Shown piece after piece: positions 28-13,732 of a stretch of 16,468 nucleotides of DNA (positions are counted from its first letter, which is position 1; each line of letters begins with the position of its first letter). Source of the stretch: Abditibacteriaceae bacterium (GTDB lineage Bacteria > Armatimonadota > Abditibacteriia > Abditibacteriales > Abditibacteriaceae). Below the pieces are notes generated by a model. It did not search any database and was not told where the DNA came from. It was given only the letters and a program-made list of their open reading frames with translations. The DNA lies in NCBI GenBank assembly GCA_031425655.1, contig JANPJS010000276.1, forward strand, positions 1-16,468, given 5' to 3'. The position numbers and the translations under genes are program-made.

Positions 28-924
28 ATGAAAATTTTATTGACAGGCATCAGCGGGCGCGTGGGACGCATGACCGCTCTCGATTTTTTGGATAACGGCC
101 ACGAGGTTCGCGGATTGGACAAAGCGCCGCTGCCCGAAGCATTGCGCGGACGCGTGGAAATGGTTTACGCCGAAATCACCGACCGTTTTGCGCTTTTGCG
201 CGCAGCGGAAGGCTGCGATGCGATCTGCCACATCGCCGCGATTCCCAATCCGGGCCACTTGGACGACGTGATTTTCCAGACCAACGTAACAGGCACACAA
301 TACGCGTTAGCCGCCGCCGAAGCGCACGGCATCACGAAATTCGCGCACGCTTCGACGTGTTGCACCTTCGGCATCGTCTTCGCAAAACACCCGATTGAGC
401 CGCAGTATTTGCCGATGGACGAAAAGCACCCGACGCTGACACAAGACCTTTACGGCCTGTCGAAATTGCTGAACGAGGAAACCTGCGCCACTTATTCCCG
501 ACGCTGCGGAATGACCACGATTTGCCTGCGCTTGTCTACGGTGACGAATCTGCGCGATGCCAAACATCAACATTGGATCAAGCGCCGTTTGCAGCACTCA
601 CGCGATTGGCGCGCCGACGACCTGTGGACGTATATTGACGACCGCGACACCGCCCGCTCTTTTCGTCTGGCATTGGAAAACGCGCCGGACGGCCATCACG
701 TCGCCATCATCGCCGCGCGCGATTCGTTCACGCCTTACGATATTCGTGATCTAATTCGCCAGCATTTTCCCGGCGCAGCGGCACACGCCGATAATCTCGA
801 AGCGCACGGCAGCGCTTATTCCACACGAGCCGCCGAAGAGATTTTTGGCTTCGTCGCCGAACATTCGTGGCGCGATATTCCTGAACTCGCCGAAACAGCG
901 GAAGAAGTATTGCTGAACAAATAA
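28..924 (+). CDS. NAD-dependent epimerase/dehydratase (extended SDR family)
   Basis: 298-aa ORF with N-terminal Rossmann motif LLTGISGRVG, HIAA, and catalytic YxxxK (YGLSK). Confidence 0.9.
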   Translation: MKILLTGISGRVGRMTALDFLDNGHEVRGLDKAPLPEALRGRVEMVYAEITDRFALLRAAEGCDAICHIAAIPNPGHLDDVIFQTNVTGTQYALAAAEAHGITKFAHASTCCTFGIVFAKHPIEPQYLPMDEKHPTLTQDLYGLSKLLNEETCATYSRRCGMTTICLRLSTVTNLRDAKHQHWIKRRLQHSRDWRADDLWTYIDDRDTARSFRLALENAPDGHHVAIIAARDSFTPYDIRDLIRQHFPGAAAHADNLEAHGSAYSTRAAEEIFGFVAEHSWRDIPELAETAEEVLLNK

Positions 925-997
925 TTCACCGCAGAGACGCAAAGAACGCAAAGAATTTAAGAATCTCTGCGTTCTTTGCGTCTCTGCGGTGAATTAT
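921..997. repeat. Long palindrome (CACCGCAGAGACGCA family) between convergent genes; probable bidirectional terminator or REP-like element
   Basis: Perfect 30-bp inverted repeat: 921-950 ataattcaccgcagagacgcaaagaacgca and 968-997, with a 17-nt spacer. It fills the whole gap and contains the epimerase TAA stop. Confidence 0.9.
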
Positions 998-4206: not shown

Positions 4207-4209
4207 ATA

Positions 4210-4284
4210 AGTTTTGAGTTTTAAGTTTTGAATTATGAGTTAACAACTCAAAACTCAAAACTCAAAACTCAAAACTCAAAACTC
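4210..4284. repeat. Inverted heptamer tandem array (AGTTTTG)n ... (AAAACTC)n
   Basis: About 4.5 degenerate agttttg units (4210-4241) face 5 perfect aaaactc units plus a partial unit (4245-4284). Fills the galT-kinase gap. Confidence 0.9.
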
Positions 4285-4286
4285 CA

Positions 4287-7200
4287 ATGCCTCTTCCGGT
4301 TCGTGAATTACTCGCCAGTTTTCTGCAAAAGCGGCACGATACCGTGATGAAGCGGATGATGGCGCTCGTGGCCGAGCAGCCCGACCTCGACGAGTTGCGA
4401 CTCGCGGCGCAGCAGGGCGATTATCAGCATTCCATCGGCACGTTGCTTTCGTTGTTGGCGCATAACGTGGCCGATCCCAGCGATCAGCGCTGTTTTGAAT
4501 ACGCCGAGAAGCGGGCGCAGGAACGGTTCCGCCAGCAAGTGCCGGCTTATCAAATGGTGCGCTTGGTGGCGCTGCATCGCCAGGTCGTGCAGAGGATGAT
4601 TCAGCGCCATTTCACCGATGAACCGGGCATGGCCCGGCGCATGAGCGAGATCATTGACGGCCAGTTCAGCCAGCTTCAACTGACTTTTAGTTCGACTTAC
4701 GAGAACTTGCGCGATCAGCAATGGCGCGCCTCGGAAACCAAATACTACGCATTGTTCGAGAACGCCAGCGAAGCGATTCTCTCGTTTCGTCCCGGCGAAG
4801 GGCGCATCATCGAAATGAACGCCCAAGCGGTGCGCTTGTTGGGCCGCGACCGCACCGAAGTGCTTTGCACTCTGTTCATTGACCTTTTTACACCCGAACA
4901 CCGCGATCAAGCGCAGTGGCTTATAGATCATCAGCCGGGCACGGCCAATATTCGCGTCGAAGACATGGCGGTGCGGCGCGCCGACGGACTGGCGGTTCCG
5001 GTTTCGCTTTCGTGCAACTGGACGCAGGTGGGCGGCGACGGCGTGGCGCAGGTTATCATGCGCGACATTACGCAACTGCGCCAAATGCAGCGCGAACTGC
5101 GCGATTACGCCGATCAACTCGAAGGGCGCGTGGCCGAGCGCACCGCCGAGCTTCAAGTCAGCGAAGACCGTTATCGTGAGCTGTTTTTGCAAGAGCAACG
5201 GCGGGCGCAGCATTTGTCCCTTGTCAACGCCGTCGGGCGCTGCGGATTGGAAAACATCAGCGGCTCGGCGCGCTCGGCGACTTCCGGGCACGATGGCGGC
5301 GCCGATCAATTTTTGCATCAAGCGATTTTAGCGGTTCAAAGCCATTTTCCCGACTGCGATGCGGCTTTTTATTTGTGCCGCAGCGCCTACGAGACTTTGC
5401 TCGGCGAGCGCACCACCCATGACGAATTTGCCGACGAAAGCACGTTTCAGCCCGCCTTTACCGATGGTGAACGCCCTGATCTCGTCGTTATTGCGCAGGC
5501 CGGCGGGCATGGATTAACACCGCCGCCCGGCACTAAAGTCCCGATAGGCGCCGGTTTGCCCGGTTTGGCGGCGCAAAACGGCGAAATGCTGCTGATAGAG
5601 CAAAATGCCGTGCAGGACGAACGCTACCAACGCACTCCCGGTGTGCATCGAGACAGCGAAGCGCAAATCTGTGTGCCGATTTTCATCGAAAACGTCATGG
5701 CCGGCGTGATGGAAATGTGCAGCGATACCACCGGCGTTTTCGACAGCCACGATGTCGGCGCGCTGCAAACCGTGTCCGGCATCATCGCGGGGCATTTGCA
5801 GTCGAGCCGCGTCTTTCGTGAAATGCGCGAACTCTCCGAATTTCACCAAACGCTCACCGATACCATGCTGCATTCGCTGCTCATCATTGGACGAGACGGC
5901 TTGATTCGCGTGGTAAATCGGCGCCTGTGCCAAACGCTGCGGACTTCGCGCGAAGCCATGATTTATCAGTCTTTGGAACACGTTTTAGGCGAAAGCACGG
6001 CGCAAAAACACGATTTGCACGAAGTGCAGCGGCAAGTGCGGTCGCTGGGCATTCCGTGGGAATTGCAGGATGTTCACGTTCGCGTCAGTCCGGGCGATGC
6101 GCCCGACTACACGGTCGTTTTCGATCTGCGCTTTTTCCGCATTTTCTTTCGCGGCGAAGCCCAGGTCGTGCTGCTGATGATCAATGTCACGCAGCGTTGG
6201 CGCCGCGAAAACCAGATGCAAATGATGAACGAAATGGGGCGCCTGTTTCAATCGTCCCTCGACGTGGATACCGTGCTGCACACGGTTCTGACCTGCATTA
6301 CGGCGGGGCCGGCGCTTGGTTTTAATCGCGCCTTCGTGTTTCTGCGCGACGAAGGCACCGATTGTTTTCGCGGTGCGATGGCGCTGGGGCCATCATCGGT
6401 GGAAGAAGCCAATCGCATCTGGTGGGAATTGTCGCAGCGCGAAATGAGCTTGCAGGAAATTTTGGATGCTTCGCCTAAAAACGCCATGCTCACGCCGCTG
6501 CAAGAGCGCGTCACCACGATCAGCTTCGATCTCGATAATCCGGCCTTGCCCGCCTTGGTCAGAGCCGTTCTGGAAACACGCGCTTTTCGCGTGTCGCCCG
6601 ACGAAATGTTCGTGGATGTCGAGCAAGCCCTTTTGGACGGAGCGGCCCCGGCCCGACTTCGCCGCGACGAGGAATATAGCCGCGAATATCTTATGGCGCG
6701 CGACCTATTTACGGCGCGCCAGACGGCCATCGCGCCGCTCGTGGCTAAAGATCGCGTCATTGGTGTCGTCATCGCCGACAATCTGTATTCGGAAACGCCG
6801 GTCGAGAGCGGCGATGTGCAACTGCTCGACACACTGGCGCGCCAAGCTGGTCTGGCCTTAGACAACGCGCGCGCCTACGAGCAATTGCAGAAAGCGCAAA
6901 AAGACCTCTTAGCCGCCGACCGATTGGTTGTAATCGGCGAATTGGCGGCACGCATCAGCCATGAAATTCGCAATCCTCTGGCGACTATCGGCGGTTGGGC
7001 GCGCAATCTCACGCGCAAAGCCGATAATCCCGCCGAAGTGCAGCGCAAAGCTGTGATTATCATGGACGAGGTCAAGCGCCTTGAGGAACTGCTCACCGAC
7101 GTGCTGGGAATGTCGCGCGCACGCCCGTTGAACCTCGAAGCCAACCAAATCAACGAAATAATCGAGCGCGCCCTGATGTTGGCCGAAGCCGACATCCGCG

Positions 7201-7664: not shown

Positions 7665-7750
7665 CAAGGCAAACGCACGAGAACTGCCCGGCGAATAAAT
7701 TCGCCGGGCACTCAGGCAAGCCTCCGAAAAATCCTCATGCGTTTGCCCTG
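7665..7750. mobile_element. Short (86 bp) CAGGGC-ended MITE with target-site duplication
   Basis: Imperfect TIRs caaggcaaacgcacgag / ctcatgcgtttgccctg. Flanking direct repeat gattaacag(c) at 7656-7664/5 and 7751-7759/60. Central palindrome tgcccggcgaataaattcgccgggca. Last 44 bp identical to 13689-13732. Confidence 0.85.
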
Positions 7751-8254: not shown

Positions 8255-8351
8255 GAGTTTTGAGTTTTGAATTTTAAGTTTTGAATTGCCCTACCCAGTC
8301 CGGCAATTTTCAACTTAGAACTCAAAACTCAAAACTCAAAACTCAAAACTT
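8255..8351. repeat. Second inverted heptamer tandem array (GAGTTTT)n ... (AAAACTC)n
   Basis: gagtttt/gaatttt/aagtttt units from 8255, inner IR aattgcc / ggcaatt, then aaaactc units to about 8351. Same unit as 4210-4284. Confidence 0.9.
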
Positions 8352-8364
8352 AGAAAGGCCCGTA

Positions 8365-9759
8365 ATGAACAGCAATTCCGTCGAAAACGATCCCGGCGCC
8401 ATTTACGCCAGCCCCGCCGACATGGCCGCGCCCAGCCCGGTTGATGCCTACGCCCGCCCCGACCAGATTCGCTTCGCACCTTCGATTGCGCGCGGCATCG
8501 CGGCGCGTGGGCAAGGCTCAGCGTTGCAGCAAACGATGGTCATGCTTTTGGCCGGTGGCCAGGGCGAGCGCTTGTATCCGCTTACGCGCGACCGCGCCAA
8601 ACCGGCGGTGCCGATTGGCGGCGTTTATCGCATCATTGATTTCGGTTTGTCCAACTGCATCAACAGCGGAATGCGGCGCATTCTCGTGCTCACGCAATAC
8701 AAATCGTTTTCGCTGCAACGGCACATTCAAGATGCGTGGAATCCGCTTTTCAACCCGGTTTTCGGCGAATACATTGACGTAATTCCACCGCAGCAGCGCA
8801 ACGTCAAACGCTGGTATCAAGGCACGGCGGACGCGATTTTTCAGAACATTTATATGCTCCAACAGGAGCGCCCGGCATTCGTGGTGATTCTCAGTGGCGA
8901 CCATATTTACAAAATGGACTACGCCAAAATGCTGGACTTTCATCTGGCAAAAGGCGCCGATTTAACCGTCAGTTGCACGCGCGTGCCCCTCGCCGAAGCC
9001 TCGCGTTTCGGCATCGCCGGCGCCGACGACAGCGGGCGCATCGTGCGCTTCGTGGAAAAGCCCAAAGACCCGCCGCCCATTCCCCACGACCCCAGTTATT
9101 CTTACGGTTCGATGGGCGTTTACGTTTTCAATACGGACGTTTTGGTGCGGCGCCTGATTGACGACATGAAGCAGGATACCGAACACGATTTCGGCAAAAA
9201 CATCATTCCCGACATGGTGGCAGGCGGCGACAAAGTGTTCGCCTACCCATTCGTGGATGAAAACAAAGGCCCGGACGTTTACTGGCGCGACATCGGCACG
9301 ATTGCCTCGTATTACGACGCCAACATGGATTTGACGCAGGTCAAGCCGCAATTCAACCTTTACGACGACGAGTGGCCGATTCACCGCCGCAACCAGCCCG
9401 GCCCACCCGCCAAAACCATTTCCTACACCGCAGAACACAGCCACACCGGCTCGGCGCGGCGCGCTGAAATCGAAGATTCGCTGCTGGCGACAGGCGTTAT
9501 TATCAGCGGCGCGCAGGTGCGAGGCAGTGTTCTCAGCCCGCGCTGCTTTTTGCACTCGCGGGCGCAAGTCGAAAACAGCATTCTCTTCGACGACGTGGAA
9601 ATCGGGCGCGACTGCCGCATCCGCAACGCGATCATTGACAAGCACGTCAAACTGCCGCCGGGAACTATCATCGGCGAAGACCCAGAAGAAGACGCGCGCC
9701 GCTTCACGGTCAGCGCGGAAGGCATTGTGGTTCTGCCGAGCGGCCTTGTATTGAAATAA
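8365..9759 (+). CDS. glgC: Glucose-1-phosphate adenylyltransferase (ADP-glucose pyrophosphorylase)
   Basis: LAGGQGERLYPLTRDRAKPAVP, WYQGTADA, LSGDHIYKMDY, FVEKP, SMGVYVF, DFGKNIIP, YWRDIGT, and a C-terminal beta-helix. ATG 8365 follows gaaagg; the TTG start at 8281 only translates the repeat. Confidence 0.96.
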   Translation: MNSNSVENDPGAIYASPADMAAPSPVDAYARPDQIRFAPSIARGIAARGQGSALQQTMVMLLAGGQGERLYPLTRDRAKPAVPIGGVYRIIDFGLSNCINSGMRRILVLTQYKSFSLQRHIQDAWNPLFNPVFGEYIDVIPPQQRNVKRWYQGTADAIFQNIYMLQQERPAFVVILSGDHIYKMDYAKMLDFHLAKGADLTVSCTRVPLAEASRFGIAGADDSGRIVRFVEKPKDPPPIPHDPSYSYGSMGVYVFNTDVLVRRLIDDMKQDTEHDFGKNIIPDMVAGGDKVFAYPFVDENKGPDVYWRDIGTIASYYDANMDLTQVKPQFNLYDDEWPIHRRNQPGPPAKTISYTAEHSHTGSARRAEIEDSLLATGVIISGAQVRGSVLSPRCFLHSRAQVENSILFDDVEIGRDCRIRNAIIDKHVKLPPGTIIGEDPEEDARRFTVSAEGIVVLPSGLVLK

Positions 9760-9762
9760 TTT

Positions 9763-9840
9763 TTCACCGCCTTGCCCAGAGGGCACCCAAACGCCGAGGG
9801 CGCAGAGATTTAATTATCTCTGCGCCCTCTGCGTTTTTGG
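9763..9840. repeat. Second CACCGC..CGCAGAG-family palindrome, interrupted by a micro-hairpin
   Basis: 21-bp IR with 1 mismatch (9789-9809 / 9816-9836, loop ttaatt) resembling 921-997. The leading ttcaccgc is separated from the stem by cttgcccagagggcacc. Confidence 0.75.
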
Positions 9841-9847
9841 AGTCAAT

Positions 9848-10081
9848 CATCTTACGCAGTAGGATTTGTTTGATAGGCGCAACGAGCGGCTTCGCCGCTC
9901 CCGGAAACCCCCACCCCCCTTGGTAAGGGGGCTAAAGAGATCATGCTACTGCACAAAGTTGCGTTTGGCTCGTGCCGCAGCGTATCAATTTAGCCCCCTT
10001 ATCAAGGGGGTTGGGGGTTTCCGGGAGCGGCGAAGCCGCTCTACACACCGCTTACTATTAGTCCATCGCGTAAGGTGGGAT
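9848..10081. mobile_element. MITE-like element with 53-bp internal inverted repeats
   Basis: IRs 9884-9936 and 9989-10041 (2 mismatches in 53 bp), each made of hairpin gagcggcttcgccgctc and hairpin ccccctt-N3-aaggggg. Outer cttacgc / gcgtaag IR. Flanking direct repeat agtcaat at 9841-9847 and 10082-10088. Confidence 0.75.
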
Positions 10082-13514: not shown

Positions 13515-13732
13515 CAGGGCAATCGCATGAGGATTTTTCGGTGTTTCCCAGAATGGCCCGGCGAATAAATTCGCGGCAACAACTCGGCAAAGTCCACCTT
13601 CGTGGACTCTTTTCTGAGTTTTTAGTCGCCGCAGGGCGACTTCGGGTGCCCTTTGGGCAGGGCGTGGTTGCCGCGAATTTATTCGCCCGGCACTCAGGCA
13701 AGCCTCCGAAAAATCCTCATGCGTTTGCCCTG
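13515..13732. mobile_element. Long (218 bp) CAGGGC-ended MITE with nested palindromes
   Basis: 27-bp TIR with 1 mismatch (cagggcaa[t/a]cgcatgaggatttttcgg), extending imperfectly to about 69 bp including a perfect 21-bp ggcgaataaattcgcggcaac. Inner hairpins at 13591-13608 and 13624-13641. Flanks ccacttccac (13505-13514) and ccactttcac (13733-13742). Confidence 0.88.

Follow-up and report, generated by a model that had tools for sequence, protein, structure and literature searches.

The window analysed here, a stretch of 16,468 nt from an Abditibacteriaceae genome, carries two copies of a non-autonomous, 19-nt mobile hairpin. Its unpaired tails are constant, CGGG at the left and GG at the right; its middle is extendable, and it is moved in trans. 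There is little room for doubt that the element is mobile and that its arrival leaves a consistent signature: five target bases are removed and twenty put in (the 19 nt plus one variable base, H), for a net gain of 15 with no duplication. The first-pass annotation had proposed an ultra-short mobile sequence parasitising other repeats, which agrees with the many unrelated hosts and with the empty alleles found for 204 of 286 evaluable copies. It had described the event as an insertion, but the event is a replacement.

The limits of both window copies were set by comparing filled and empty alleles. One copy (9770..9789, minus strand), located by sequence match and allele comparison, is a 19-nt variant that begins with T and ends in AG where the consensus has GG, with H = G at 9770. 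It lies in a palindromic repeat (9756..9838, limits approximate) just 3' of the stop codon of an ADP-glucose pyrophosphorylase-like gene (NTP_transferase; 8281-9759). The other (13643..13662, plus strand; also 19 nt with T) is a TTT-loop variant with H = G at 13662, and replaces a TGCCG allele in a MITE-like inverted repeat (13515..13732) which blast hits show to be multi-copy in the genome. Whichever strand is taken, both fold into a hairpin of 5 bp flanked by unpaired tails, at about -4.2 kcal/mol and a z of about -2. The originally noted identity of 9768-9788 with the reverse complement of 13644-13664, at 19 of 21 positions, is confirmed, and the 15-nt asymmetry reported for the 13.5-kb repeat is the net gain of the element (15 empty and 4 filled alleles in 19 copies read). 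A 16-nt lengthening had also been claimed for the arm at 9768, relative to an arm at 921-950. The extra length is real, but the gain is 15 when measured against the host allele TCTCTG, seen in four copies; the 921-950 arm belongs to an empty relative (921..997) and is a one-base-shorter host variant. The double variant of the first copy (T first, AG last) recurs in a second, different host family. Further repeats in the window (9884-10041, 2856-2927, 4208-4295, 8255-8355, 1818-1871 and 7680-7750) comprise a long inverted repeat, palindromes, 7-nt tandem arrays and a partial copy of the MITE-like host; several of these families host the hairpin elsewhere in the genome.

The genome containing the window (G000; 5.98 Mb in 327 contigs, 97% complete) has about 300 copies. 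A strict pattern gives 290 matches, where an order-5 Markov model built after masking the motif predicts 0.33, and allowing one mismatch gives 334 versus 5 for a control. The pattern of the first-pass annotation, applied genome-wide, has 97 matches and its reversed control none; the motif is thus clearly over-represented, and empty alleles of the host repeats are common. Flanks were readable for 286 of the 290 copies and fall into 76 clusters. The consensus of the G000 copies, C-GGG-YGCCC-TYT-GGGCA-GG, has sharp conservation edges and is followed by the variable base H. The tails are not inverted copies of each other; neither terminal inverted repeats nor a target-site duplication, as expected of a MITE, are present.

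Variants range from 18 to 25 nt. Type B, without the A before the final GG, has 41 copies in G000. A 24-nt sister element has the same tails and a longer stem, and replaces CCGCG or AGGCG with a net gain of 19; together with a 22-nt hybrid it accounts for 16 matches in G000 (C27:8170, C69:11033, C145:2591 and others). Relatives have 22- and 25-nt forms with longer complementary stems and different middles. Across the 24-nt sister and these 22- and 25-nt forms, the tails are thus the constant part of the element. Rare variants recur in different hosts, so either the copies themselves or several masters serve as templates. None of the four common variants contains a stop triplet in any frame.

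The replacement signature was read wherever an empty allele could be assigned. Among 293 copies examined, 189 of type A had one, and 167 of these show a net gain of 15; the other 22 show gains of 10, 13 or 14. For type B the net gain is 14 in 18 of 35 copies, with other gains in 17. In both types the deviating gains come partly from allele variation in the host. Nearly all five-base alleles at these sites end in G (895 of 901), as do the removed five-mers when counted by cluster (42 of 43), in flanks with a G content of 39%. The other four positions are unconstrained apart from a slight preference for C/G and then G, and no homology between element and target was found at the left junction; no target motif is required beyond the G. 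Equivalently, the 19 nt take the place of four bases, and about three-quarters of events also alter the G that follows. The same rule holds in the Chloroflexota, where CAATG is replaced by the 19 nt plus T in G022, G040 and G041, with the unpublished G042 agreeing, and where a DDE transposase gene filled in G040 has an empty homologue in G043 (GCATG replaced by the 19 nt plus A). No orthologous pair of filled and empty alleles at one single-copy locus turned up. For coding sites of the ISAs1 and IS3 types, five genomes each yielded no empty allele, and there the G rule is presumed from the protein consensus. In two Chloroflexota genomes (G022:C95:96607-96653 and G025:C30:260335-260362) there is a longer form with its right half doubled (an extra TAT and a second GGGCAGG), which the five-base rule does not explain.

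The landing sites are mostly other repeats. In 248 of 283 copies a 15-mer repeated three times or more lies within 25 nt, compared with 808 of 2198 random non-coding positions, and by eye most of the remaining 35 resemble diverged repeats. Palindromes, MITE-like repeats and tandem arrays with 7- and 10-nt units all serve as hosts, and so do presumed dRS3/NTS-like and GTAG-type repeats. No fixed position relative to host hairpins or secondary structure was seen in 39 reconstructed sites. Coding insertions are found in an ISAs1-type transposase and two Calx-beta proteins in G000, in an IS110 gene in a relative, and in the DDE transposase of G040; a match in a tyrosyl-tRNA-synthetase gene (G000 C139) may be due to chance. 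Exact 19-mers followed by A also occur within open reading frames of viral contigs (L134/L136 and L137/L138), possibly as phage-gene insertions; five hits in viral contigs showed no parent element.

With so many copies in repeats, the hairpin might not be mobile in itself and could have spread by gene conversion or by amplification of its hosts. The repeated flanks would be expected, and so would the sharing of H among copies at one site. One clear case is known: the ten copies in a 1.5-Mb Chloroflexota genome (G157, L140-L148) are a single insertion amplified within a larger MITE-like composite repeat, and the two in G169 are a tandem duplication. Against this stand the 76 unrelated flank clusters within one genome, left junctions without homology, and the identical rule in transposase genes and in two phyla. 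Amplification accounts for copy number within sites; as the sole cause it is refuted, and the chance that it explains the whole pattern is very small.

Across 27 Abditibacteriaceae genomes, the four of this genus have 235, 141, 51 and 44 copies, G036 has 30, and the other 22 have 0–5. Fourteen type-B copies are present in another relative, G005. Across GTDB genomes a scan found at least 87 loci; among the 80 listed are Abditibacteriaceae, several multi-copy Thermomicrobiales, Chloroflexia and Herpetosiphonaceae genomes, and single hits that may be chance. Five Chloroflexota carriers have 9–27 matches each. When 301 genomes were sampled evenly from that phylum, 12 had a match and just two had ten or more. 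This patchiness suggests that the element has spread horizontally. A metagenome scan for longer variants gave 120 hits, nearly all chance (101 with zero or one stem pair).

The base H is not random. Over 130 distinct events, counted by site, H and next base, it is A in 67, G in 31, T in 27 and C in 5. The count covers G000 and 97 chosen loci (37 from Abditibacteriaceae, 60 from Chloroflexota), leaving out eight likely chance hits, seven unlisted loci, two from other groups, L018 and two G042 loci. T is found in 25 of 68 events with a purine next and in 2 of 62 with a pyrimidine next (6 of 14 and 0 of 17 in the Chloroflexota alone), although kin loci are not independent, so that p-values from these counts overstate the significance. 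Neither the upstream base nor the removed base was found to determine H, and one target context has T in G000 and A in a relative, so context does not fix it. Since it varies with the next target base, however, H is not simply carried over from a donor, and is probably made at insertion. Copies at one site that differ at the two Y positions (Y4/Y10) share H in 47 of 54 pairs; many variants therefore arose after a single insertion, the events are fewer and less independent than counted, and the two Y positions likely change in place.

A second mobile element is nested in the hairpin. In G000, eight hairpin copies run on past their CT into a long element (left ends at C65:22015, C66:64911, C70:66907, C88:4227, C170:133, C189:27298, C212:6644 and C220:83), and all of them reach contig ends. 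Ten matching right ends lie at contig starts, where the hairpin resumes at the same CT, and one further copy holds a 31-nt remnant; L090, L091 and L098 are also listed for this element. Its body is missing from the G000 assembly, leaving only contig-end stubs that are 80–86% identical. Relatives in G003, G005 and G006 encode an IS110 recombinase (in G005 with PF01548 and PF02371, DEDD and Transposase_20). The left non-coding end has a long stem with an inner loop, in which 9 nt match the left half of the hairpin up to and including CT and 7 nt are the reverse complement of its right half, in an arrangement like the LTG/RTG guide layout given in the covered part of PMC11208160. Judging from these matches, the IS110 very probably targets the hairpin through the CT core and its guides. 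The relative in G005 has the same scaffold with other guide letters and is located in another repeat, and its three copies differ among themselves in the left guide. The only copy in G006 lies within a hairpin of type B; its right guide is an exact match to that type, and its left guide differs by one or two bases. One scaffold with different guides for different repeats in close relatives would be a natural case of bridge-RNA retargeting onto a mobile element.

The long element was first taken for the parent of the hairpin, a candidate dropped when it proved to be an IS110 inserted into it. The reverse derivation, with the hairpin as a footprint or deletion derivative of IS110, written or left by the bridge RNA, is also very improbable and largely refuted. 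It would account for guide loops that spell 14 of the 19 hairpin bases and for IS ends that lie within the hairpin in the same hosts. The tails are absent from the guides, however, and the 22- and 25-nt variants have other middles; in G005, home to 14 hairpins of type B, those IS110 copies that were read are directed at a different repeat; at the DNA level the IS end has no match in any of four Chloroflexota genomes searched; and IS110 recombination, as the covered part of PMC11208160 has it, is scarless around the core. The IS110 is a parasite of the hairpin and not its parent, and there are three levels of nesting: host repeat, hairpin and IS110. Like the replacement character of the event and the two-phylum range, this element was overlooked in the first-pass annotation.

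The fixed length of the target loss, and an extra base that leans to A and responds to context, are what would be expected if a short template were copied at a staggered break and an untemplated base added on the return to the target. In the favoured reading, which is put forward tentatively, a polymerase copies the hairpin into such a break by DNA-templated copy-in chemistry. A nuclease would open repeat or IS DNA with staggered nicks at a G:C pair, and the left 3' end would prime copying of a single-stranded hairpin template. The polymerase would then add H as one untemplated (or lesion-opposed) base, with A > G ~ T > C, and the target would be rejoined one base past the G with loss of its overhanging bases, as in target-primed insertion with target deletion. 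The abundant hairpin would later have become a programmed target of the IS110 bridge recombinase. Copying from DNA by a DNA polymerase of the host or of an element is likelier than an RNA route because no reverse transcriptase (RT), sought as RVT_1, was found. The reported order of untemplated addition for one RT is A>G>>C~T (10.1101/792986, as far as covered); H matches it in having A first and then G, but T makes up 21%, above the preference of that enzyme.

The alternative of retro-mobility, with an RNA copy reverse-transcribed at a staggered cut (R2-like target deletion and an untemplated base at a template jump), is unlikely. Target loss with an A-biased extra base is its classic signature, going by the covered part of the same source (10.1101/792986). 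No RVT_1 was found in G000, G001 or G002 (235, 141 and 44 copies; fragmented, 85–97% complete assemblies), with one broken match in G003, while RVT_1 is present in 21 of the 27 family genomes, mostly element-free. A search for a group II intron end in G000 was negative (150 of 429 candidates scored), and stem variants favour neither strand as RNA. On the other side, an RNA intermediate has reportedly been proposed for the SDRs of Nostocaceae, and multi-copy mobile genes do drop out of assemblies, as the IS110 body does; a multi-copy mover could by analogy be missing in the same way. Most Abditibacteriaceae have one or two RT genes with an open frame of ~500 aa, and none was found intact in this genus.

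Cutting and joining of single-stranded DNA by a HUH (RAYT/TnpA-like), Ssn-type or topoisomerase-like enzyme is a further, somewhat doubtful possibility. The hairpin would be excised by cuts placed a set distance from the stem and exchanged for a 4–5-nt patch of target, and H would originate either in the donor or in a junction C that had been damaged. This would need no RT, Y1_Tnp and GIY-YIG genes are present in G000, and the presumed dRS3/NTS-like and GTAG-type hosts would suit it; but a donor-borne H would not vary with the next target base, and HUH integration is conservative, without a 5-nt loss. Fixed unpaired tails around a hairpin also recall REP/RAYT and NTS/Ssn systems, as described in the covered parts of PMC3116915 and PMC11893778. 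The two gene families are equally common in element-free relatives, with Y1_Tnp in 25 and GIY-YIG in all 27 family genomes; PDDEXK_3 is found in 24 and DUF559 in 18. Co-occurrence with reverse transcriptases, HUH or other nucleases, raised in the first-pass annotation, was not seen: none of these four families, nor RVT_1, tracks the element across the 27 genomes.

Searches by gene family and by element ends found no mover enzyme in carriers, and 61 pairs of element ends in G000 enclosed no convincing gene-bearing parent. Presumed resemblances to tRNA acceptor stems, relaxase nick sites and IS3 ends were set aside. G000 also has a 32-copy spaced repeat that looks CRISPR-like, along with numerous other families of short repeats whose flanks are diverse.

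Taken together, these features could represent an undescribed integration chemistry, a suggestion offered with considerable reserve: a trans-acting machine would exchange five bases ending in G for a 19–25-nt hairpin plus one untemplated base, without RT, duplication or homology, crossing phyla, with a middle programmable in length and exploited by bridge RNAs. The exchange of five bases for twenty, the invariant G and the context-dependent last base exclude duplication-making transposases and conservative recombinases. How repeats of ~20 nt move has been an open question since SDRs were described, and carrier and non-carrier genomes within one family are material for finding the enzyme. If the suggestion is true, identifying the enzyme would yield a natural short-patch DNA writer and give access to how SDR-like elements move.

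Several known systems share features with the hairpin. REP/REPIN-RAYT elements are likewise short, non-autonomous, multi-copy hairpins targeted by IS110 (PMC3116915, in part), but the present element is a single 19-nt unit with no doublet and no GTAG/CGTC tag, and lands inside REP-like repeats; Y1_Tnp genes occur in 25 of the 27 family genomes, with or without the element. NTS/SRM elements with Ssn GIY-YIG nucleases are also oriented hairpins with a conserved unpaired flank, as the covered part of PMC11893778 describes them; here NTS-like repeats are hosts instead, and no element-flanked ssn gene was found. The resident IS110 resembles IS621, ISPpu9 and ISPpu10 in its CT core, in having left and right guides in the left non-coding end, and in inserting in a repeat, and IS110 elements that target REPs are already on record (PMC11208160 and 10.64898/2026.03.19.712850, both in part). 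It differs in that its target is itself a mobile 19-nt insert in other repeats and that close relatives have guides for a different repeat. Rickettsia palindromic elements insert in frame into genes (PMC3733652, in part), as a hairpin without stop triplets might, but the hairpin is far shorter (five codons net) and found mostly in repeats and transposase genes. The covered parts of papers on REP/REPIN, RPE, MITE and NTS elements (PMC3116915, PMC3733652, PMC3184786, PMC11893778) include none with this signature. A literature search limited to non-subscription papers returned no description of the hairpin or of a five-for-twenty replacement.

The closest likeness is to the small dispersed repeats (SDRs), which are about 21–27 nt long; the hairpin, at 19 nt + 1, is slightly below this. 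SDR1-8 of Nostocaceae are said to have been described by Elhai et al. in 2008 (Genome Res 18:1484). In the covered parts of PMC5861425 and PMC4390886 they appear as gene-less, structured units of ~20 nt at exact positions inside other repeats, with the mover unknown. SDR-like repeats are reported there (PMC5861425) not to have been found in HIP1-rich cyanobacteria outside Nostocaceae, unlike the hairpin, which is found in Armatimonadota and Chloroflexota. SDR5 inserts precisely between bases 3 and 4 of HIP1 (PMC4390886; also PMC5861425), whereas the hairpin removes five bases, needs only a G and has a context-dependent end base. It is thus a short, gene-less dispersed repeat, mobile in diverse contexts, without the precise, loss-free insertion that is known for SDR5 only. 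Overall, the hairpin is a cross-phylum, very small mobile element that is SDR-like in size and habit, and is set apart from the SDRs, as far as SDR5 has been described, by the way it replaces its target.
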